64,000 nt of DNA, from NCBI GenBank assembly GCA_039818205.1, contig JBCBUK010000013.1:57404-121403 (forward strand). Direction: 5' to 3'. Position 1 is the stretch's first letter; every line of letters begins with the position of its first letter. The translations under genes were made by a program, and so were the position numbers. Below the pieces are notes generated by a model that was not told where the DNA came from, searched no databases, and saw nothing but the letters and a program-made list of their open reading frames with translations. This document shows positions 49,421-61,870 of the stretch, piece after piece. This stretch comes from Verrucomicrobiota bacterium. Lineage in GTDB: Bacteria; Verrucomicrobiota; Verrucomicrobiia; Opitutales; Cerasicoccaceae.

Positions 49421-49498
49421 CGGGCTGTAGCGCAGTCTGGTTAGCGCACTACACTGGGGGTGTAGGGGTCGGAGGTTCGAATCCTCTCAGCCCGACCA
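49421..49498 (+). tRNA. tRNA-Pro (anticodon GGG), probable prophage attachment site
   Basis: Acceptor stem cgggctg/cagcccg + ACCA, anticodon arm ctaca-ctGGGgg-tgtag, T-loop ggttcgaatcc; TTGACA at 49380. Confidence 0.95.
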
Positions 49499-49650: not shown

Positions 49651-50796
49651 ATGTTCGGGCAGGATGGTAACGAAATTGACCCCACCAAGATAGAAGGCAG
49701 GCCGTATCTGTTCGAGAGAAAAGACCGGAAGAAGGGTAAATTCTGTGTTCGGTTCAAGCTCCAGGGTGGCAAGTTGGCTACGCGATCGTTTTCAACGGAA
49801 TATGAGCGAAGCGAGTTCATGCGGGAGCATCGGCTTGGCGCGATCGATGGCTCATTCAATGCCGCCGATTGGCAGCGCTGGCTAAATATCAAAACCACTT
49901 GCGAGCGTCACGGCATGAGTCCAGAGCGATTGCTTGCCTATGCCGTTGAGGCAGAAGCGAAATCTCGGTTTACTTCCAAGAGTCTTTTTGAGGTCTATCA
50001 GGAATTCTACGATGCCAAGTCCGACAAGTCGAAAGACTACGTTTCGCACATCAGAAGTGCCCTAGGTGATAACCTGGTCCCGTGCTTGGGGGGCGATCGC
50101 CAAATTGACACTATCACCCGCGATGACCTACAGGGCTGGCTAGATGATTCTAAGGTAGGCCCTGTGACTCGACAGAACCGACGAGGCTATCTCAGGACTT
50201 TGTTTAGTTGGGCAAAGGAAAGGGGATACATTCTAGTCTCTCCAGCTGATGGCCTGAACGTTCCAGAGTCCAAGAGTAAGACGCCAGGCATATTGACGCC
50301 TGATCAAATGGAGAAGCTGATCCGGGCCAATGAGCATTTACCCGAGGTTTGCGCATACTTGGCACTTGGTGCTTTCGCCGGGTTGCGGTCAACCAGTGTT
50401 GAAAGACTGGAGCCGCATGAAATCCGCATCAAGGAACGCCAGCTCTTTTTCCCTGCCGAGAAGTTCAAAACGGGTCGCTCTCACCTTATCGAGCATGCGC
50501 CCGAGAATCTTTGGCCCTGGCTGGTGCGGGCGAACCTAAAGCAGGCGTTCCCCGTTCCCCACCGTCGATTTCTGGATATTCGATCAAGGGCAAATAAGCG
50601 AGCTGAGCTTGTGCCGCCTCACAACGCCTTGCGGCACTCATTTGCAACTTACAAATGTGCGCTCGATGGGAGCGCAGAAAAGGCGAGTTACATTTTAGGT
50701 CACACCAATCCAGCCGAGATCTGGCAGAGTTACAAGGGAATCGGGACTCGGGCCGATGCCGAAAAGTTCTTCTCGATATTACCCAGCTCGCAATAA
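49651..50796 (+). CDS. Tyrosine recombinase / phage integrase
   Basis: Catalytic R (AGLRS), K (FKTG), HNALRHSFATY (HxxR), GH, Y (WQSY); SAM-like core-binding domain. Confidence 0.92.
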   Translation: MFGQDGNEIDPTKIEGRPYLFERKDRKKGKFCVRFKLQGGKLATRSFSTEYERSEFMREHRLGAIDGSFNAADWQRWLNIKTTCERHGMSPERLLAYAVEAEAKSRFTSKSLFEVYQEFYDAKSDKSKDYVSHIRSALGDNLVPCLGGDRQIDTITRDDLQGWLDDSKVGPVTRQNRRGYLRTLFSWAKERGYILVSPADGLNVPESKSKTPGILTPDQMEKLIRANEHLPEVCAYLALGAFAGLRSTSVERLEPHEIRIKERQLFFPAEKFKTGRSHLIEHAPENLWPWLVRANLKQAFPVPHRRFLDIRSRANKRAELVPPHNALRHSFATYKCALDGSAEKASYILGHTNPAEIWQSYKGIGTRADAEKFFSILPSSQ

Positions 50797-50869: not shown

Positions 50870-51871
50870 GTGAAAATTTTTGCTACAATCTGTCTATTTC
50901 TCACTTGGGCGCACATTCAGGCGGATCCAATCCGCATCGTGTTGGTGGGTGACTCGTTGCTATCCGCATCGGTGCATCATGAGGCAACCGGCAAATATGG
51001 ATGGGGTGAGTTTTTCGGCGATTTCTTTTCAGAAGAGGTTGAAGTCATAAACCGCGGCAAAGGTGGGCAGAGCACAAAGAGCTTTATTGAGGCTGGTTTT
51101 TGGGAGCAGGCCCTAGCGTTTCAAGGTGATTACTACTTTATTGAATTCGGCCACAACGACCAAAAGGAAGGATTCGATTTTCTATTCACAGAACCGGAGG
51201 GCGAATACTCCGAGAACTTGCGCAAGTTCGTTTTTGAAATTCTTTTGCAGGGTGGTAAGCCGATCTTTGTCACGCCACTTACCCGCCGAATCTTTATCAC
51301 TGAGGATTCCGTAAACGCGAATTTGCTGCCATACGTTCAGGCAATGAAGCAGGTCGCCGAAGACTGGAGCGTCCCGGTCATTGATATGTATTCGGTTTCT
51401 AAAGGACTTTATGAGGCTATTGGCGAGGAGCAGTCGCGTTTCTATGCGCCTTTCAACGAGAAAGACAAAACGCACTTTGGTTTGAATGGCTCGATATGGT
51501 GCGCTCGGTGGATATCTAGCGAAGTCCTTTGGTCTGATCACCCGACCTTTTCGGAGTTGAAGGAATTTGTTAGCTTCGAGATTCCAAATCAGGTTTTCGA
51601 CGTTCCCGCGTCGTTGCTCCAAATGCAGGTGTCACCTAGTTGTTGTAGTTGGAAACCACTTGGCGAGCCATTCTACCATCCTGGAGGGGCTTTACGCGTT
51701 CCTGTGTGGTTCGAGCATTCTGATACGGCGTTCACTCGGGTTGTCTACGCTACGCCGGAACCGATCGCAGCGACAACATTGACCGAGGAATCAATCGATA
51801 GCTCATCAATGCTTGGCGGAACAAGCGTCGATCGCCTTCGGTGGTTCTGGCTGTGGTTGGCTTTCTACTAA
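50870..51871 (+). CDS. SGNH/GDSL esterase, rhamnogalacturonan-acetylesterase-like, secreted (prophage cargo)
   Basis: Signal peptide; LVGDS, GWGE, N.GKGGQSTKSF, EFGHND, DKTH (blocks I, II, III, V). Confidence 0.88.
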   Translation: MKIFATICLFLTWAHIQADPIRIVLVGDSLLSASVHHEATGKYGWGEFFGDFFSEEVEVINRGKGGQSTKSFIEAGFWEQALAFQGDYYFIEFGHNDQKEGFDFLFTEPEGEYSENLRKFVFEILLQGGKPIFVTPLTRRIFITEDSVNANLLPYVQAMKQVAEDWSVPVIDMYSVSKGLYEAIGEEQSRFYAPFNEKDKTHFGLNGSIWCARWISSEVLWSDHPTFSELKEFVSFEIPNQVFDVPASLLQMQVSPSCCSWKPLGEPFYHPGGALRVPVWFEHSDTAFTRVVYATPEPIAATTLTEESIDSSSMLGGTSVDRLRWFWLWLAFY

Positions 51872-52054: not shown

Positions 52055-52441
52055 ATGAGGATATTGGTTTTGGATGACCGGCGAGAGTTTGCGCAGTTTG
52101 TTGCGCTGAAACTCAAGCGAAACTTTGGGCTGGAGGCCGAGACGTGCTATACCGTCGAAACAGCACTGGAGAGTCTGAAGAGGGACAGTTACGACGTGGT
52201 GATCTCTGATCTCCAAATTGGCTTTGATGACGCCTACGGGCTCATGGCTGGGGTGAAGTATATGGCCGCTGAGGGCTACTTTAAGGTGCTCCCCCGGTTT
52301 GCTGCCCTCACTTCCCACGGCGACCAGGCGGACCATCTGCTAGAAGCGGGGTTTGAGGTCGTCTGGGGCAAAGACCATTCGCACGAAGAATCATTTATTG
52401 CATCACTCGATGGGTTTCTTTTTCAAAGTGTGGTTGATTAG
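52055..52441 (+). CDS. Stand-alone response regulator receiver (CheY-like)
   Basis: ILVLDD, YDVVISD (phospho-Asp), ALTS, WGK; no output domain. Confidence 0.85.
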   Translation: MRILVLDDRREFAQFVALKLKRNFGLEAETCYTVETALESLKRDSYDVVISDLQIGFDDAYGLMAGVKYMAAEGYFKVLPRFAALTSHGDQADHLLEAGFEVVWGKDHSHEESFIASLDGFLFQSVVD

Positions 52442-55436
52442 TTCAGCTTTGTTGCTGTCTATCTTGAGCGCTGAAGGCCGTTATCTAGATCGCGTCTTTG
52501 ATGGGGACGACCATCCTTTTTTGGATGACATAAGGGTAACGATAGAAGATTCACGCGGCTTCATGTGGATAGGCAGCAACGAGGCTCTACTCTTTTACGA
52601 CGGAGTAGATTTTCTACCTGTTGATATCAATGGCGCCGATACCGTGATGGCTATCGCTGAGGATGAGTCTGGGCGAATCTGGATCGGTGCAAACGGTGAG
52701 TTAGGATACATCGACCGGGTCAATAATGGCGGTTTCGAGTATCGGTCGCTCATCAGCCACCTAGACCAAGATGATCCATTACCGAGCAACGTCTGGAATC
52801 TGCTATTTGTGGGTGATACAGTTTTCTGGATTGAGGAGAAGAACGTATACCAATGGGACGGGACTACTATGGCCACATGGCCGTTGCCAAATGCATATCG
52901 ACTGACCTCGTTCATAATCGACGGAGAGCTTTGGATTCATCAGCGCAATGTCGGTCTACGTAAGTGGGATGGCGAATCATTTGTCACCGTCTACGCGGAC
53001 AGTGACATTTTTCGGGAAGGAATAATCGAGGTCGCTCTAGTTGGTGGGCATTTACAGTTCTACACTTTTAGCGGAAAAGTTCTAATACTTGAGGAAGGCG
53101 AATTCAAAGAGAAATACGACTTGGCGGAAGACGTGTTTGATCTCACGCCGTGGCAAGATGGTTTTTTGGTGGCCGGAGAGAAGGCTCTTTTTTATCAGAA
53201 AGGAGAGCATATTGAAAAGATTTATGAACTTGCCGAAGGCTATTTTTGGCAAGCACGGGTTGTTGGAAATGATGTTTGGGCGGGTAGCAGTAACGGGCTT
53301 ATACACGTTCGAACCAACGGAAGTGAACTCTTCGAGACAGGGCTAGTTCTGGGCATGACAGAAACCCCAGATGGAGACTACCTTCTCGGAACTCAGGCAG
53401 GCGGAATGATCTATAAGGATGGGTCTTTCCGAAAGCTTGGCAGTGAACTAGCTTTCAACGTTTCGGAATGTAACGAGGGATATGTAATTGCGGGCATGTG
53501 GGAGGTTAAGCTCATGGGCGCATCTGAGGGCGTCAAACTAGACAACATAGCTGCGATACATACCCTAGTTCCCATTGGCGATGATCCTAGCCTATATTTG
53601 GGCTACGGAGTTTCGGGTTTGCAATTGTTTCGGGTGGATTCCGAATTGTCGGCTGTCGGTGAATTCGTGAGAATGGCTTGGCAATATCCAAACTCATTCA
53701 CGATGGTGAACGACAAGACCTTTTACATTGGGTCCACCAATGGCGGCTTGTGGCGAGGCACCATTACGAGCGACGACATCCAATCAGCTGAGGATATAGA
53801 AATGTTCATTGTTCAGCCCCGGGCCTTTGGAGTAGAGTCGGTTGCTTGGGCGAGGCCATTCATGATGGGGGAGCATCTCTTAGTGTTATGCAATACCGGT
53901 CTCTATCTCTACAATAGTCAGCAGCAACGATTTTACAGGACAAACGCATTTGAGAAGGATTTCCTAAAGAATAACCCCTTCACCATTCAGGCGTCTGTCG
54001 AAGACGAGCGCACGCTCTGGGTTATTTTTTCTAACAAGGAAGGTGCTTATATCCTGCGGAGATTGGATCGAAAGGGAAATGATTTTGCTTCAAGCGATTT
54101 CTTCGTTCCCGAGGCTGAGGAAGTTGATCCGATAGCATGGTTTAAATACGTGAAGGCTGAAGATGTTTTCATCTTTGGAGGTAATGGCCTAGTCAGATAC
54201 CTTGCGCCAGATTCTAGCCACAGCGAACCAACGCAAGAACCTGTTCTAATTTTTGCCGATAACGGTGGAGAGGAGGTTTCGATCGAAAACTTGACGGCGG
54301 CATTTCCCTTGAGTGGATTTGAACTTCGCCACGTATCGCCTTCGGCCATTTACGAGAGAATTGAATACCGAACGAAAATCGGGGACAGGGAATGGTCGGA
54401 ATTTAGTCCGAAGCCAGTAACGAAACTGTCAAAGCTATGGCCCGGTGAGTATGTCGTAAGCGTTCAAGCGAGAAGCATCGACGGTTCTTTTAGCGATGTA
54501 TCTTCGTTTGATTTTACAGTGCGAACCCCCTGGTGGATGGAGTGGTATAATTTAGCCATTGCCGCGACTTCGAGCGTGCTATCGATATCGCTTCTGCTCT
54601 GTGTTCTTATTAGGCCTTATCGGCGGCGAGTTCAGTCGCTTGAAAAAGAGATCGAAGTCGAGGGGAAGGTTTCTGAGCGATCAGCCAACTCGGGCAATCG
54701 AATGTTGAAGGATATCAAGCATGAGATTGAGGAGCCAATCAATGCTGCTAGGGCGAACCTCTATCTGCTGAATGATATGGTCGAAAAAGACCCGATTGCC
54801 CAGATGCATTGTGCAAAGTCAATGGATCTGATGGATACTGTAATGCGGATGGTGTCAGGCATGATCCAATTCCCAAAAATGATTAACGGGAAGGCCGTTG
54901 TTTGTGATGCGCCGTTCAATATTTACGATATCCGCAGCGAATTGATTGGAGTTTTCGAGCCAAAAGCGGAAAAGCAGAATGTCGTTTTAAGCATACCAAA
55001 GAACATGGACAAGCTTGAGGCGGTTTACCTGCGTGGCGATCGGGGAAAATTATTTCAAGTGATAAGTAATTTGGCTGGTAACGCCATTCGCCATGCGGGC
55101 ATGACGGATCAATTGGGGCTTGTTCGAGTTGTGTTGGCTTCTGTGCGGGTCGGTGATGGCAAGGCTAAGCTCATGGTCGCGGTCAGCGATAATGGTCCAG
55201 GCGTCCAAAGTCATTTGAAGAAAAAGATATTCAGTAGCTATTTTTCGACGGGTGATGAAAAACAGAACCTTGGGCTAGGTTTGTATCTTTCACAGATTCT
55301 TGTCGAAGCGATGGGGGGTAAGCTAGAGATTAGGGACAACACGCCACGGGGGGCTGTATTCCAATTTGAATTGGTTCTTGAGGTTGCCGAAGGGGCCGAT
55401 TCCACATCAACATCCAACACACAAAAGCATCAATAA
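52410..55436 (+). CDS. Membrane sensor histidine kinase with periplasmic beta-propeller and Y_Y_Y-like domain
   Basis: EDSRGFMWIGS / EDESGRIWIGA propeller repeats, LWPGEYVVSVQAR, PWW + TM, H-box KHEIEEPI, N-box QVISNLAGNA, DNGPG, GLGLYL. Confidence 0.9.
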   Translation: MGFFFKVWLISSALLLSILSAEGRYLDRVFDGDDHPFLDDIRVTIEDSRGFMWIGSNEALLFYDGVDFLPVDINGADTVMAIAEDESGRIWIGANGELGYIDRVNNGGFEYRSLISHLDQDDPLPSNVWNLLFVGDTVFWIEEKNVYQWDGTTMATWPLPNAYRLTSFIIDGELWIHQRNVGLRKWDGESFVTVYADSDIFREGIIEVALVGGHLQFYTFSGKVLILEEGEFKEKYDLAEDVFDLTPWQDGFLVAGEKALFYQKGEHIEKIYELAEGYFWQARVVGNDVWAGSSNGLIHVRTNGSELFETGLVLGMTETPDGDYLLGTQAGGMIYKDGSFRKLGSELAFNVSECNEGYVIAGMWEVKLMGASEGVKLDNIAAIHTLVPIGDDPSLYLGYGVSGLQLFRVDSELSAVGEFVRMAWQYPNSFTMVNDKTFYIGSTNGGLWRGTITSDDIQSAEDIEMFIVQPRAFGVESVAWARPFMMGEHLLVLCNTGLYLYNSQQQRFYRTNAFEKDFLKNNPFTIQASVEDERTLWVIFSNKEGAYILRRLDRKGNDFASSDFFVPEAEEVDPIAWFKYVKAEDVFIFGGNGLVRYLAPDSSHSEPTQEPVLIFADNGGEEVSIENLTAAFPLSGFELRHVSPSAIYERIEYRTKIGDREWSEFSPKPVTKLSKLWPGEYVVSVQARSIDGSFSDVSSFDFTVRTPWWMEWYNLAIAATSSVLSISLLLCVLIRPYRRRVQSLEKEIEVEGKVSERSANSGNRMLKDIKHEIEEPINAARANLYLLNDMVEKDPIAQMHCAKSMDLMDTVMRMVSGMIQFPKMINGKAVVCDAPFNIYDIRSELIGVFEPKAEKQNVVLSIPKNMDKLEAVYLRGDRGKLFQVISNLAGNAIRHAGMTDQLGLVRVVLASVRVGDGKAKLMVAVSDNGPGVQSHLKKKIFSSYFSTGDEKQNLGLGLYLSQILVEAMGGKLEIRDNTPRGAVFQFELVLEVAEGADSTSTSNTQKHQ

Positions 55437-55555
55437 TGAAAAAAATACTCACTGCGTTGTTTCAGACCGCAACCTATAATCTCGGCTACCGCTCGGCACC
55501 AGACCTGCCGACCGTCGAAACAAAGGCGTGGCCGTCGTTCCCGAGCGGATTCTAG
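55436..55555 (+). CDS. Putative 39-aa peptide translationally coupled to the kinase
   Basis: TAATG stop/start overlap; MKKILTALFQTATYNLGYRSAPDLPTVETKAWPSFPSGF*. Confidence 0.4.
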   Translation: MKKILTALFQTATYNLGYRSAPDLPTVETKAWPSFPSGF

Positions 55556-55569
55556 GGGCTGATAAATAG

Positions 55570-56604
55570 TTACTTCGCAAGTGCCTTGGACAATGCAGCC
55601 GAGGCACTTTTCTTTTTCTTAGATTTGAATGCCCGATAGTTCAAAAAGAACTTCATCGCGGTTTCTGCGTCACATTGCTGTTCTTCCATTATCTGCTCGA
55701 TGGACAGGAAAACATCGTCCGGGATGACCTTGTATTTGAGTAGCTTTGCGGCGCGCTCGACGGGGACGCTCCAAATGAGTGCCGCTTCTTCCGGCGTGTT
55801 TTCGTTGCGGAATCGCTCGGAAAATTCTTCGCTGCTTTCGCCTGTTCGAATGTAGGGGGCGTAGGGTGTGGACTTGCCCGGCGGTAGTCCGTATTCGCGG
55901 CTTGGCGTGGCCGAGCTCGGCGGTGGGCTGGCATCAATATCAATTGGGCTGGGCTGATTCTTTCTGTCATACCAGCCTAAGATTTGAGGGTCATCGCCTT
56001 CGCGGATCACGATCTCGGGATAAATCGGATTGATCGACTCAAGGATCTTTACTCGTTTCCCTCCGCCTCGGGGTGAATCGTAGCTTAAGCCTTCGTCAAC
56101 TTCGTCTTGTGTTGCGGGTCTTGTGTTGTAGCGCTTGAGAGTGCGTTCGCCCTTGATCAGGAAGCAGTAAATTTCACCCTTTTTAACATGCGGATTGTTC
56201 AGCGATTCGGGTTTGCGGATCACAACAGTCTGACCGTCTTTGATTTCGGGGGCCATGCTGTCACCAAATACTTTTAGGGCGAAATGATCCGCATTGTAGT
56301 TTTCTTTGAGTTTAACTTCGAATTCATCCCCCGATATCGGAGAGCCCGCCGCGACACCGTAGCAGGGGAGACTAAACCAATCGGAATCAGTAGCTTGCGC
56401 ATTTCCCACAAATGGAACAATTCCATCGATCGTTTCGGGGGTTGATTCTTCTTTCGCATCTTCAAGGAACTCCCTGATCGCAATCCGTGTTAGCTCGGAG
56501 AAGTCGATGTTCAATTCTTCAGCGCGATCCTCAGCGCGATTATATAGATCGACGGGAAGTCTAAATGCTTTGTGAACTTGAGGTTGTGCCCTTTTCTTTG
56601 CCAT
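55570..56604 (-). CDS. Prophage repressor: N-terminal ribbon-helix-helix, S24 (LexA/CI) peptidase, extra C-terminal domain
   Basis: HKAFRLPVDLY..AE..AEE..IDFSELTRIAIREFL (RHH pattern); VAAG cleavage site, GDSM (Ser), TLKRY (Lys). Confidence 0.85.
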   Translation of the reverse strand: MAKKRAQPQVHKAFRLPVDLYNRAEDRAEELNIDFSELTRIAIREFLEDAKEESTPETIDGIVPFVGNAQATDSDWFSLPCYGVAAGSPISGDEFEVKLKENYNADHFALKVFGDSMAPEIKDGQTVVIRKPESLNNPHVKKGEIYCFLIKGERTLKRYNTRPATQDEVDEGLSYDSPRGGGKRVKILESINPIYPEIVIREGDDPQILGWYDRKNQPSPIDIDASPPPSSATPSREYGLPPGKSTPYAPYIRTGESSEEFSERFRNENTPEEAALIWSVPVERAAKLLKYKVIPDDVFLSIEQIMEEQQCDAETAMKFFLNYRAFKSKKKKSASAALSKALAK

Positions 56605-56679
56605 TGTCTGTCTGTCAAACAAACAGAAAAATTCTGCAAAATTCAAACATTTTCAGAAAAGTCGTTGACGCTTAGTAAG

Positions 56680-56854
56680 AACTGTGCAACAAACAAACAC
56701 ATAATGACTGAAGAGATAAAGAAATCTTGCGCAATGCCAATCGACCTCTGGGAGAAGGTAGAAGCTCACATGAAGGAGCAGGATACCGATTTTTCAAAAG
56801 TATGTCGGCGGGCTCTTCGTTTTTATTTGGACAAAACTGTGCAACAAACAAACA
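56680..56854. repeat. Exact 20-bp direct repeat AACTGTGCAACAAACAAACA (56680-56699 and 56835-56854), candidate operator
   Basis: Each copy lies just upstream of a start codon (56704 and 56865). Confidence 0.75.
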
Positions 56855-56862
56855 AACGCTAG
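56704..56862 (+). CDS. Small RHH DNA-binding protein in the Cro position
   Basis: KKSCAMPIDLWEKVEAHMKEQDTDFSKVCRRALRFYL, similar to the repressor N-domain. Confidence 0.75.
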   Translation: MTEEIKKSCAMPIDLWEKVEAHMKEQDTDFSKVCRRALRFYLDKTVQQTNKR

Positions 56863-56864
56863 CG

Positions 56865-57215
56865 ATGCCAACTAACCCACTAGGAGCCGGAACCCGCAAC
56901 CGGACAACCAATCTTCCGAAGCCGTTGGATTCTGTCGTTTCCCGGCTAGCCTTTGAAAGCGACATGTCTGTCTCAGCATACTTGCGCCAACTTGCGAAAG
57001 AGGCGGCAGAGCAAGGGCGGATTATCGTCAATGAGGACAAGCGGCAGCTCGCTCTTGGGATTTCCTGTGCGTTGCTGCTCGGTATCGGTTTTGGCTCAAC
57101 AATTTCAATCAGCGTCATGGGGCAAAATGAGCCACGAGCTGCCCAAGTTCAAAGGACTAAGGGCCGCCGTCGTGACGAGAGCATTTTCGACCTGGAAAAC
57201 GAACTAGTAGCATGA
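56865..57215 (+). CDS. RHH-like protein with a hydrophobic C-terminal segment
   Basis: NRTTNLPKPLDSVVSRLAFESDMSVSAYLRQL followed by LALGISCALLLGIGFG. Confidence 0.65.
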   Translation: MPTNPLGAGTRNRTTNLPKPLDSVVSRLAFESDMSVSAYLRQLAKEAAEQGRIIVNEDKRQLALGISCALLLGIGFGSTISISVMGQNEPRAAQVQRTKGRRRDESIFDLENELVA

Positions 57216-57331
57216 ACCACCAACCACAAAACCAAACACCCTTCGAGAAGGAATCCGAACTAGGAGCCAAGTTGCTGGCTTTCACCTATCTGGCAGTCGT
57301 GGTCCTAGGAGTGATTTTAACCACCAAATAA
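57212..57331 (+). CDS. Putative 39-aa membrane peptide
   Basis: ATGA overlap with the upstream stop; MNHQPQNQTPFEKESELGAKLLAFTYLAVVVLGVILTTK*. Confidence 0.5.
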   Translation: MNHQPQNQTPFEKESELGAKLLAFTYLAVVVLGVILTTK

Positions 57332-57338
57332 TTGAACG

Positions 57339-57674
57339 ATGAATGAGATAACTAAAATTGATAAATCAATCTTGGATGAGATAACCGCCGAACAGGTTGA
57401 AGCCTGGTTGGCAGCGAAACTTCATTCAACTCGGGAAACGTTTCCGGTCTCTCAAATCGAGATCTCAGTTTCGAAGCTCCCAAATCTTTCGAACTACTAC
57501 GCATCTTATACCGCCCATGCGCCGGGAGCCTGTGAAGTAGCACGCGGAAGTTTCGATGGTGCGATTAACAAGGTCTGCGAAGGCTTTGACCCAAAACGCA
57601 AATCTGAAGAAATGCGTAAGCAGGCTCAGGTCTTGATCAGCAAAGCTAACGAACTGGAAGCAGTCAGCGCATAG
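57339..57674 (+). CDS. Phage hypothetical protein
   Basis: 111-aa ORF in the tightly packed early operon. Confidence 0.6.
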   Translation: MNEITKIDKSILDEITAEQVEAWLAAKLHSTRETFPVSQIEISVSKLPNLSNYYASYTAHAPGACEVARGSFDGAINKVCEGFDPKRKSEEMRKQAQVLISKANELEAVSA

Positions 57675-57687
57675 CACTTACTAAGCC

Positions 57688-57936
57688 ATGCTTGAAGAAG
57701 TGGACATTGCCCGGATTTGTGACGGCTTAAAGCTCCGCCTTAAGGAGGAGGGATGGGTTTTGATTAAGGCAAAAGAAGTCAAGCAACTGCCGGTTTCTAT
57801 GACCCTTAAAGACGCGGCCAAAGAGCTGGGAATCCACCGTCATACTGCAAGGGCAATGGTTGAGCGTGGCGAGCTCAAGAAGAACAGCCAGGGACGAGTT
57901 CCCGCCAGCGAGATACGCCGACTTCAAGGAGTTTAA
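57688..57936 (+). CDS. Excisionase-like HTH DNA-binding protein
   Basis: MTLKDAAKELGIHRHTARAMVERGEL....GRVPASEI. Confidence 0.75.
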   Translation: MLEEVDIARICDGLKLRLKEEGWVLIKAKEVKQLPVSMTLKDAAKELGIHRHTARAMVERGELKKNSQGRVPASEIRRLQGV

Positions 57937-59440: not shown

Positions 59441-59893
59441 ATGAGCAAGAAAGTAGAAACTGACCTAGTCAAAATGGTGATGACACGGAACGGCTTAGAT
59501 GGCCCCACCGTTGCCCAGATTATTGAAGACATCAACTCGGAGCTACAGGCTCAAACGGAAGACGAAGAAAAGCCGCCACCAATCAAGAAGCAATTCGTCA
59601 TGGTGGTCTCTGATCCAGAAGACACCTTGAACGGAAAGATTCTGACGGGTTGGGTTCTCCAGATCCCCGAAGAAGATAGCCCGCACGTAGCCGAAGAGCG
59701 CCTATTCCGCCTGGGCTATGAATACAACATGAGCAAGAAGGGACGGCGCGTCCCCGTTAAAACCGTCGCTGAGATTTGCGAGAACGTTCCTGCCCGCATT
59801 CAGAAAGAGCAAAAGGTGTGGGTGAAGACCAAGGAGCCGGTTTACGCCATTCCAACCCGCAACAAGCTGCCCACGGAGGCGAAAGACCTATGA
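59441..59893 (+). CDS. Hypothetical protein
   Basis: 150-aa ORF, ATGA overlap with the clamp gene. Confidence 0.7.
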   Translation: MSKKVETDLVKMVMTRNGLDGPTVAQIIEDINSELQAQTEDEEKPPPIKKQFVMVVSDPEDTLNGKILTGWVLQIPEEDSPHVAEERLFRLGYEYNMSKKGRRVPVKTVAEICENVPARIQKEQKVWVKTKEPVYAIPTRNKLPTEAKDL

Positions 59894-60969
59894 AGTTTAA
59901 GTGCCCAGCCAAAGACTTGAAAGAGGCGCTTGCTACTGTAGGCGGCGTGATCAATGAGCGGGCCAGCCTGGCGGCTCTAACCTGCGTTCGTATTGATGCT
60001 AAGCAAGACTCACTAGTCCTTACTGGCAGCAGCCTAAACCTAAACATTCGGCACGAGTTAAAATGCAATGTTGAGCGAGCGGGATCTATCGGCTTGCCAT
60101 TCAAAAAGCTAATGAGCGTAGCCACACGCTTGGGCAACTCGGACCTCGATGTATCTGCGATCAATCCCGACCAAGCAAGGTTAGTATCTGGAGACTTCAA
60201 CTACACGATGACGGGCTTTCGATTCGAGGATATGCCAGAGACGATCGCCCTTGAGCGAGAGTATCAATGCGAGGTTGAATCAATTTGGCTACGCAATGCC
60301 CTTCGTTTTGTCCGCCCTGCCGAATGTCGAAACGAGTCATTAGACAACAAGTTTGGAATCAATTTTCTTTTCCAGGATGAGACCTTAGAGATTGCAGCCA
60401 CCAACGGCCACCAGTTTGCCAAGGCGAACATTCAGTTAACTGGGGATGTTCCAAAGGGTCTAAAATTCTTTCTACCTCCAGCAACCGCGGATCAGCTGCG
60501 CAAAATTGAAGGCGATGGGGATCTAGTGTCCGTGACTTGGTGCAAATCAAGCGTTCACTTTAATCTAGGTTCTACCGAAGTTTTTTCGAAACTCAAAGAG
60601 GCGAAATTTCCAGCGTATGAATCACTTATTTATCCGCTGATGCAGCTTGAGCCAGTCGTCGAGCTTGAGCGTGAAGCCCTGAAGGAACGCACAGAACGTG
60701 TAATGATTGGCGGGGAGAAAATGAATCTCAAGTCAACGAATAGCGGGCTCTATCTGCATTGCGCATCAAAAGCAGACGGAGATTGTCGCGATCACCTGCC
60801 AATGACGTGCCCGCAAGAGGCGGAGATCTGCCTTAACCCGGCATACCTGGCGGGCGCTCTAACATCATTCGATGAGGACACCGTTGAGGCCTACATTTCC
60901 GACTCACAACCGTTCATTCTTCGATCAGGGACGAAAGTCCAGATCATAATGGGAATCAGAGTAGCATGA
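59890..60969 (+). CDS. dnaN: Prophage-encoded DNA polymerase III beta sliding clamp homolog
   Basis: 359 aa; MKF.C....L..AL, L.LTGS.L, GINF, IAATNGHQFA, SKL.EAKFPAYE, I.LNPAYL..AL, IIMGIR. Confidence 0.85.
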   Translation: MKFKCPAKDLKEALATVGGVINERASLAALTCVRIDAKQDSLVLTGSSLNLNIRHELKCNVERAGSIGLPFKKLMSVATRLGNSDLDVSAINPDQARLVSGDFNYTMTGFRFEDMPETIALEREYQCEVESIWLRNALRFVRPAECRNESLDNKFGINFLFQDETLEIAATNGHQFAKANIQLTGDVPKGLKFFLPPATADQLRKIEGDGDLVSVTWCKSSVHFNLGSTEVFSKLKEAKFPAYESLIYPLMQLEPVVELEREALKERTERVMIGGEKMNLKSTNSGLYLHCASKADGDCRDHLPMTCPQEAEICLNPAYLAGALTSFDEDTVEAYISDSQPFILRSGTKVQIIMGIRVA

Positions 60970-61199
60970 AAACACCTAGAATTGTTGAGAATCAACATAT
61001 CGGTAAGCGGGCGCTCGTTCGCCATAAGGGCCGATTGATTGAAGGAACCATTGAGGAACTTTCACCATCCGCTGGGCACTTTCGCCACGGCGAGCAGTGG
61101 CTTGATAATGAACCAGGCCAAATCCTTGAAATCCTTCCACCACGTAAGAAGGACGGCAAGCCCACGCGCTTCAGCGTGACCAAGAAAGGAGGAAACTGA
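60966..61199 (+). CDS. Small phage hypothetical protein
   Basis: 77 aa with ATGA overlap, between clamp and ATPase. Confidence 0.6.
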   Translation: MKTPRIVENQHIGKRALVRHKGRLIEGTIEELSPSAGHFRHGEQWLDNEPGQILEILPPRKKDGKPTRFSVTKKGGN

Positions 61200-61201
61200 C
61201 C

Positions 61202-61870
61202 ATGCTTCCCATTGAATTTAAGCCACGTAATCCAACGGACTTCATTGGACAGACCTCATTGATTGCGTCCTTGCTAACTAATCGTTGTAAGGTCATGCGC
61301 CCACACGAGCACGCAAGCTTAAAGGTGCTTCTTTATGGTGAGCCAGGCGTTGGCAAAAGCGAAATCGCCATGATGGCTGCGCGGGTCTTAGTAAGCGGTC
61401 AAAACGCTGATGTTTGCATCGAGAAGCACAACGGGCGCGGCGTTAACCTGGCACGTGTTCAAGACTGGGCCAAGAACTGGCGAGGCACGCTTTGGGATGG
61501 CTGGATAGTCCACGTCATTGACGAGGTTGATCTAGTCACCAGGGAAGCGCAGGACGCTCTATTGACGCTGCTCGATGACATGCCCGGACGGCGTGCCTTT
61601 ATCGGGACCTCTAATCAGGATCTCGAGCAGTTGACGCCACGCTTTCAGACCCGCCTTCAACAGTTTGAGGTTGAGAGGCCAACAGACAGCGAGGTTGCCG
61701 AGTTCTTGCGTAAGCACTGGGGGCAGTCACTGGATGCAACCGAGATTTCGCAGATCGCAGAAGGCGCGAATGGAAACGTTCGGGCTGCGCTTCTAGACGC
61801 ACAGACTGCTTTCGACTTAAAGGCGATCGAGACAGAACCAGCCAACAAGGAACAAGAGATCTTACTATGA
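61202..61870 (+). CDS. AAA+ ATPase, clamp-loader clade (RFC/DnaX/RarA-like)
   Basis: FKPRNPTDFIGQ (RP...D..GQ box), LLYGEPGVGKS Walker A, IDEVD Walker B, AQDALL, FQTRL, GNVRAAL sensor 2; aggagg RBS. Confidence 0.85.
   Translation: MLPIEFKPRNPTDFIGQTSLIASLLTNRCKVMRPHEHASLKVLLYGEPGVGKSEIAMMAARVLVSGQNADVCIEKHNGRGVNLARVQDWAKNWRGTLWDGWIVHVIDEVDLVTREAQDALLTLLDDMPGRRAFIGTSNQDLEQLTPRFQTRLQQFEVERPTDSEVAEFLRKHWGQSLDATEISQIAEGANGNVRAALLDAQTAFDLKAIETEPANKEQEILL

Follow-up and report, generated by a model that had tools for sequence, protein, structure and literature searches.

Two related ribbon-helix-helix (RHH) repressors that face each other, Mnt and Arc, lie in the immI region of phage P22. This region has no S24 domain and forms a secondary circuit, in which Mnt controls ant (PMC7380047, in its part on Mnt). 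An RHH repressor also keeps the archaeal virus SSV1 lysogenic: F55, which at 55 aa and without a protease domain differs from the repressor described below, binds tandem repeats and is tied to the RecA homologue RadA, and the parts of PMC9608457 and PMC5569661 that deal with it describe neither cleavage nor a Cro-like opponent. In phage lambda, CI is cleaved on RecA filaments and leaves the DNA, whereupon Cro blocks cI, and both proteins use helix-turn-helix (HTH) domains (passages on lambda in PMC11149083). S24 regulators at large are said to use HTH variants in PMC8565304 and PMC13148647, papers of 2021 and 2026 in whose main text the word "ribbon" occurs zero times.

The gene pair described here lies in a verrucomicrobial prophage, in a window (the whole stretch of DNA that was analysed) of 64,000 nucleotides. 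A divergent layout, a repressor that joins RHH to S24, a Cro-position protein of RHH type that resembles it and three copies of a box are what sequences and models reveal. The likeness to lambda, as far as the account in PMC11149083 goes, comprises the divergent repressor and cro ahead of early lytic genes, an S24 domain with Ala-Gly and Ser-Lys dyad, the prophage context, DNA-binding domains that are related between the two proteins, and candidate operator boxes common to both, whereas both members of our pair are RHH proteins and both lambda proteins are HTH proteins. Further differences from lambda are a DNA-binding domain that should dimerize alone, an extra C-terminal domain and a third box at the end of cro. 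With the LexA/S24 family, in those parts of its literature that we consulted, the repressor shares the conserved catalytic residues and a (here predicted) cleavage product ending in V-A-A; the N-terminal HTH or winged HTH of S24 autocleaving repressors is absent from it. P22 immI has in common with our pair the two related, facing RHH repressors, but our pair includes an S24 domain, precedes the early operon and is accompanied by no ant match among the window genes scanned. The CI:Mor systems of TP901-1 and phi13 (PMC11149083, where it treats them) are similar in their three related operators and in a Cro-position protein that may target the repressor directly, and phi13 combines CI:Mor with S24; yet the partners there are of the HTH type and meet surface to surface, while the contact proposed for our pair is an exchange of RHH subunits.

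Among the literature titles and abstract openings that we surveyed, none describes an RHH-S24 repressor, and supplements, subscription journals or InterPro/CDD listings could record one. A first-pass annotation, made from the letters alone, had already read the locus as a prophage switch built from RHH proteins. The architecture it proposed holds, that is, the RHH-S24 repressor, the paralogous RHH Cro and the prophage position, and no printed description turned up within that survey; the annotation was incomplete, having missed the C-terminal tail, sister prophages whose switches have no S24, and relatives that carry HTH and RHH together. Sequences and models taken together indicate that this is a real and recurrent RHH version of the CI/Cro switch. 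Its features, in window coordinates, are as follows.

49421..49498, + strand: tRNA-Pro(GGG), probable integration site, attL side (ARAGORN)
49651..50796, + strand: tyrosine integrase, marking where the prophage ends on the left (matches below cut-off to three Pfam integrase families)
52055..55555, + strand: receiver protein, sensor histidine kinase and 39-aa peptide gene, convergent with the repressor (Pfam, ORF)
55436-55555, + strand: the 39-aa peptide gene (ORF)
55570..56604, - strand: CI-position repressor, 344 aa, consisting of RHH, linker, S24 and C-terminal domain (ORF, Pfam, AF2 model, fold matches)
55573..55896, - strand: C-terminal domain of the repressor, residues 237-344, with an HTH-like motif by eye (profile and genome searches)
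55963..56373, - strand: S24 autopeptidase, residues 78-214, with A86-G87, S116 and K157 (Pfam, fold, motif alignment)
56446..56580, - strand: RHH domain, repressor residues 9-53 (AF2, profile-profile, fold matches)
56612..56625, + strand: candidate operator O1, 7 bp ahead of the repressor start codon (post hoc pattern)
56665..56670, + strand: -35-like hexamer TTGACG, 39 bp ahead of the cro start (sequence)
56680..56699, + strand: candidate operator O2, an exact repeat of 20 nt that follows the -35 hexamer and precedes the cro start (repeat search)
56704..56862, + strand: Cro-position RHH protein, 52 aa (ORF, PHROG, profile, paralogy score)
56835..56854, + strand: candidate operator O3, at the 3' end of cro, 10 bp ahead of gene 3 (repeat search)
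56865..57215, + strand: third gene, RHH-like N-terminus and hydrophobic segment, 116 aa (ORF, weak match, homologue on contig C1)
57339..64000, + strand: early lytic genes, namely excisionase-like HTH, RecE-like exonuclease, sliding clamp and clamp loader (matches; cut by the contig end)

The switch pair is thus flanked by tRNA-Pro and integrase on one side and by the excisionase-like gene, RecE, clamp and clamp loader on the other. The 3' end of the tRNA gene recurs, as 25 and 22 bp, on contig C24, and the integrase has 39% identity to another integrase-like ORF on contig C22. All switch ORFs are intact, the focal repressor is the sole S24 protein on its contig (C13), and the host genome encodes recA, lexA and clpX. 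Contig C13 stops at the window end and the prophage is therefore incomplete here, so that a second control region could lie elsewhere, which counts against reading the pair as the main switch. An assembly chimera is contradicted by two contigs of run X1, which may be the source sample: one covers 56111-57754 and includes the RHH, A86-G87, S116, K157, cro and gene 3, and the second, at 55815-56140, whose depth is higher and in which a second copy probably has a share, links S24 to the tail, though the whole repressor gene is never within one piece.

The repressor starts with the ATG at 56604; an in-frame TTG further upstream would overlap the intergenic boxes. Its S24 domain is intact, as first proposed: it scores 52.2 bits on Pfam PF00717 (cut-off 23.3; E 6e-14), cleavage site A86-G87 and the Ser-Lys dyad S116 and K157 are all present, the GDSM and TLK motifs line up with their counterparts in solved LexA proteins, and in structure comparison the model resembles LexA, lambda CI and UmuD. 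From these sequences, RecA-inducibility can soundly be inferred, because xAA-G and G-x-S-M are kept in 38 of 38 homologues that begin with an RHH (with the Lys visible about 40 residues on) and because the host has recA.

For the N-terminal domain, the focal sequence by itself stays below every curated RHH cut-off, which counts against an RHH reading, and it yields weak matches only (PHROG Arc-like, E 0.031; CopG antitoxin, E 0.094). A profile built from nine repressor N-domains matches CopG (E 1e-3), and four of these nine match Pfam RHH_1, the best with E 5e-5. The AF2 model has an extended segment followed by helices at residues 18-30 and 35-53, with pLDDT 92-94 at residues 21-40, and DSSP assigns zero strand to the monomer, as expected where the ribbon forms upon dimerization. 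PutA52, NikR, Arc, AmrZ, SvtR and TacA align to residues 9-57 with modest Z of 4.5-5.9 (for PutA52, Z 5.5, rmsd 1.9, 44 aligned); these are RHH structures. On the clade HTH profile the domain scores 0.5 bits, and there is no HTH or AbrB match among the 50 best structural rows. We rejected an HTH or AbrB domain on the positive evidence for an RHH, since absence from a list cannot rule out a family. Profile, model and fold matches all indicate that the repressor N-domain is a ribbon-helix-helix and not an HTH, in line with the first-pass annotation.

The Cro-position protein alone matches a PHROG Arc-like family (E 9e-5), while a profile of seven such Cro proteins matches ORF56 and CopG with E 1-2e-7 (2e-7 for CopG) and gives a 97% match to the repressor N-domain profile. 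Aligned with repressor residues 1-56 it scores 77, compared with 21 +/- 4 and a maximum of 45 in 2000 shuffles, and 50 on the next best of 39, which bears out the proposal that the divergent gene encodes a paralogous RHH. The ribbon region of this Cro has a net charge of 0, which counts against its being a DNA reader. The third gene had also been said to start with an RHH pattern; it has a homologue in the same position of the prophage on contig C1 (46% over 57 aa), which speaks for this, but its own match is weak (NikA-like, E 0.09), and among 25 candidates no outside homologue was found.

As for the DNA that both proteins might read, identical copies of the 20-nt sequence begin at 56680 and 56835, these being the only two copies genome-wide at up to three mismatches, and a third, partial copy lies at 56612. 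A 14-letter box pattern derived from these very sites has 3 matches in the window against 0.24 expected. Locus-specific repeated boxes are likewise found in the intergenic DNA of loci L135, L139, L141 and L147. TTGAC is present 38-39 bp before cro in L047 and L137 as well; no clear -10 element was found beside TTGACG, the hexamer was not called by the promoter scan, and promoter and terminator scans of the window came out at chance level. Neither the 20-nt repeat nor the separate C-terminal domain features in the first-pass annotation.

Relatives were searched for with the focal protein and with an RHH-S24 alignment, which gave 11, 96 and 265 matches (the 150 best of the 265 were used). The resulting 220 proteins include 188 with an S24 match and at least 45 residues before it, which we labelled as RHH-first (38), HTH plus a middle domain (100), HTH without a middle domain (19), LexA (7) and other (24, mostly truncated or generic). 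The architecture search suggested earlier thus shows a recurring design, in 38 of 188 S24 relatives, a figure that is not a frequency, as the queries favoured RHH-S24. The RHH-first label rests for 32 of the 38 on the Cro-derived profile, where they outscore every shuffle (the best of which reached 8.0 bits), for four on the repressor profile only (two of them are inside that profile) and for two, P0133 and P0219, on inspection by eye. GR[PKQ], which is presumably an AT-hook-like motif, stands near the start of 17 of the 38, and the ribbon region is basic in 34 of 39 (a list that differs from the 38 by three rows).

All named RHH-S24 members belong to the Verrucomicrobiota, Luteolibacter luteus and Cerasicoccus frondis among them. 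The clade is not common: in one family, 14 of 401 genomes had a match, and 6 of the 21 places in these 14 hold RHH-first proteins. The clade profile did not reach generic S24 proteins, and other phyla could hold RHH-S24 too. P0219 has an RHH-like start on a canonical LexA-type S24 (TIGR00498, E 2e-29) and is, to judge by its sequence, a possible independent case of RHH plus S24. In 50,697 records of isolated phages tblastn gave zero matches, and IMG/VR gave weak S24 matches only and nothing for the clade motif or the C-terminal tail.

Wherever the DNA upstream of an RHH-first repressor is readable, an RHH Cro faces it (7 of 7: focal, L047, L135, L139, L141, L147 and L154; in L046 and L138, which are outside this count, the upstream DNA is too short), and the ribbon of these partners is basic in 6 of 7. 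By way of control, an HTH-S24 repressor without RHH, at L013, faces an HTH-type cro by eye, and the repressors on C28 and C30 face unrelated helical proteins. When ten pairs, made up of these seven loci and three sister pairs without S24 (C29, C1 and C33), were compared all against all, the Cro's own repressor ranked first in five, with one tie, and otherwise at ranks 3, 3, 5, 6 and 9; this rank sum, which speaks for a cognate likeness, was reached by 37 of 200000 permutations, and the pairs include kin and are not independent.

The commonest relatives found, about 100 of them, are HTH-RHH-S24 proteins with an internal RHH. Their middle domain gives a 90% match to the RHH profile and matches Pfam TacA1 in 4 of 17, and its model is that of an RHH (TacA1: Z 7.0, rmsd 1.6, 48 aligned; PutA52: Z 6.6, rmsd 1.3, 44 aligned). 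The 12 residues ending at the ribbon of this internal RHH are net positive in 9 and negative in 51 of 89. Among the 19 small proteins encoded opposite, 14 are negative and 2 positive (near-duplicates L044 and L148 were dropped, and the L015 repressor was classed by eye). No HTH is evident by eye in these 19, and their own RHH fold finds weak support, in an hhalign match of 29% and a FitA-like RHH in 3 of 19; there is also one match to HTH_26 (E 0.014). A useful PDB sequence match was not found for them, and TAL-effector repeats, which the PDB search returned for their profile, were judged a repeat artefact. We infer that in HTH-RHH-S24 phages the RHH may be a dimerization lock and that the partner may act on the protein.

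One genome holds related prophages with RHH-S24, HTH-S24, HTH-RHH-S24 and S24-less RHH versions of the repressor. The focal S24 domain has 63-75% identity to three same-genome repressors with HTH N-domains, and sister prophages carry HTH-S24 repressors at the same position. Others, on C29, C1 and C33, have an RHH/RHH switch and the same tail without S24, so that the main input may be something other than S24 (the C29 repressor passes RHH_1, and the RHH calls for C1 and C33 rest on weak matches and the pattern). The tail itself ends six resident prophage repressors, on C13, C29, C1, C33, C30 and C28, and does so irrespective of the N-domain or the presence of S24; the C29 copy is 97.6% identical over 85 aa. 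Kinase homologues adjoin the repressors of C29, C1, C33 and C30, which with C13 makes five of the six tail-bearing repressors; C28 is cut by the contig start. No family for the tail was found in Pfam, PHROG or PDB sequences, and it was not found in the 60 relatives and 300 other genomes of the order that were searched; among the 220 proteins, its profile matches P0001, P0004 and P0006 only. A match to Asn-tRNA ligase (E 0.003) was judged to be due to chance.

A quick tree was made from 162 S24 domains (140 columns; the 24 "other" proteins and 2 short rows were left out); on it, the RHH-first label changes 30 times, and at least 8 of these changes are forced by well-supported branches. Shuffled labels change 33.6 times on average, and 27 of 500 shuffles are as low as 30. 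The label is hence spread nearly at random, which fits repeated cassette exchange, and a single origin of RHH-first repressors is unsupported by this tree.

We consider it likely that a temperate phage uses the pair as its primary switch between lysis and lysogeny, akin to lambda CI/Cro but with RHH proteins as the DNA readers. In the lysogen, rightward early transcription would be blocked by RHH dimers of the repressor on O2 and O3, dimers that the S24 domains would link into cooperative higher oligomers. Upon DNA damage, RecA filaments would trigger cleavage at A86-G87. Because an RHH is dimeric by itself, cleavage cannot act by monomerizing the DNA-binding domain, and fragment 1-86 should stay dimeric. 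In cleaved LexA, the new V-A-A end is the signal for ClpXP. Most likely, then, cleavage of our repressor would remove cooperativity and expose the V-A-A end of fragment 1-86 to ClpXP, by analogy with LexA 1-84, which according to the pertinent part of PMC13102950 is degraded by ClpXP and still binds DNA. RHH domains form through dimerization and bind operators cooperatively, in the words PMC5569661 devotes to them. Cro, with a near-cognate specificity, would take O1 next to the repressor start and turn repressor synthesis off. Such a switch would be bistable, as the first-pass annotation proposed. The cassette of cro, operator and RHH might serve as an immunity module that passes from phage to phage, whether joined to a shared S24 or not.

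A different role for the Cro-position protein would be to act mainly by protein contact, by swapping subunits with the repressor RHH: the mixed dimers would hold one S24 and could neither oligomerize nor read the operator properly, an antirepressor logic like that of TP901-1 Mor but through the intertwined RHH interface. The first-pass annotation had raised CI/Cro heterodimers as a possibility, and a predicted complex of repressor 1-56 with Cro passes weakly, at 0.52 against 0.00 for the best control; the heterodimer is a model, in which at least 96% of contacts agree between runs and the partner has a pLDDT of at least 74. Of the solved pairs, 116 of 157 attained the mark, as did 2 of 215 mismatched pairs, with 18 of the solved pairs and both mismatches scoring no higher than 0.60. 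This weak pass can be explained by likeness to solved RHH dimers. That the residues common to repressor RHH and Cro lie mainly in the helices favours the swap, as do the internal RHHs of the HTH-RHH-S24 relatives, which are seldom basic, and the acidic proteins facing them, which lack an evident HTH and fit protein binders rather than DNA binders; the weakly supported RHH fold of the latter detracts from this, and the Cro partners of RHH-first repressors are mostly basic, as DNA binders should be. We regard action mainly by contact as unlikely.

It is still less probable, in our opinion, that the decisive input, or part of DNA recognition, resides in the C-terminal domain, with S24 as an optional second input. 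This domain would read a signal from the kinase, receiver and peptide cassette, or bind DNA by its HTH-like motif, and its presence on six repressors regardless of N-domain or S24, its near identity on C29 and the neighboring kinase homologues would all suit such a role. The kinase linkage may equally reflect common ancestry inside one phage family, the searches gave the tail neither a family nor a fold, and as its profile matches 3 of 220 proteins, other RHH-S24 homologues work without it. We deem it very improbable that the pair, instead of being the main switch, is a decayed remnant or a secondary cassette in the manner of P22 immI. The two facing RHH genes do resemble mnt/arc, an Ant-family gene follows Cro in L135 and L141, and the prophage is incomplete on C13, but a scan of downstream window genes gave no ant-like match, the early operon comes straight after the pair, all ORFs are intact, the contig has no other S24, and in sister prophages this position is held by HTH-S24 repressors. 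The lambda-like switch with RHH readers is the reading that we prefer.

A bolder view, which we put forward as speculation and rather doubt as a whole, is that a Verrucomicrobiota phage family decides between lysis and lysogeny by exchange of RHH subunits, the small facing gene supplying a matching subunit for mixed dimers. In RHH-S24 phages, such dimers would read the operator differently and deprive the repressor of cooperativity. HTH-RHH-S24 phages, whose two RHHs would have lost the basic ribbon, would use the RHH purely as a protein-protein lock for a "Cro" that does not bind DNA. The third domain of the focal repressor may in addition take the phage's peptide/kinase signal, giving two inputs per protein.

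The recurrence of the RHH-S24 class would mean that an unrelated DNA-binding fold can carry the DNA-damage sensor and that the CI/Cro layout exists built from other parts. It also raises the puzzle of how cleavage inactivates a domain that remains dimeric. With four versions of the switch in one genome, related prophages can be compared directly. The scheme proposed here is a first model of prophage control in Verrucomicrobiota, where such proteins are annotated just as "S24 family peptidase" or "LexA". In the ESM Atlas, the nearest cluster is a 184-aa Verrucomicrobiota "LexA family" without an RHH label, which we note as a lead only.

The focal repressor ends in a domain of about 108 residues with an HTH-like motif, which is common to six prophage repressors of the focal genome, GCA_039818205.1 (on contigs C13, the focal one, C29, C1, C33, C30 and C28), and which stands at their C-terminus independently of the type of N-domain. 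No known family was found for it in Pfam, PHROG or PDB sequences. A phage-borne sensor kinase adjoins five of these six repressors. Features of the focal prophage, in window positions, are:

50870-51871 (+), GDSL-type hydrolase, between the integrase and the receiver gene
55436-55555 (+), 39-aa ORF, overlapping the stop codon of the kinase gene
55573-55896 (-), C-terminal domain of the repressor
59890-61870 (+), prophage-borne bacterial-type sliding clamp and clamp-loader-like ATPase

A partial copy of the hydrolase, 91% identical, lies at the start of contig C5.

Among the 38 S24 repressors labelled as beginning with an RHH domain, 17 carry a basic, AT-hook-like GR[PKQ] arm ahead of the ribbon; at loci L139 and L154 the arm is found on repressor and Cro alike. 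Ant/Rha-family genes directly follow the RHH Cro at L135 and L141. P0219, a relative with a canonical LexA-type S24 domain behind an RHH-like N-terminus, falls outside the Verrucomicrobiota clade.

S24 is absent from the RHH repressor/RHH Cro pairs of the sister prophages on C29, C1 and C33 (L157, L158 and L159). At L163 the repressor position, with an integrase nearby, is occupied by a 243-aa protein that starts with an RHH like that of gene 3, the gene after cro, and faces a small gene, possibly also RHH; the locus spans C11:33226-34268.

Opposite the repressors that have an HTH before an internal RHH and S24 (L041-L045, L136, L137, L140, L142-L146, L149-L152, L155 and L008) lie small genes whose products are acidic and show no obvious HTH; these are candidate antirepressors acting on protein.

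At L162, two tRNA-Pro 3'-end copies with similar flanks, spaced 9.7 kb apart (C24:15554-15575 and C24:25268-25292), are possibly the right ends of tandem elements.
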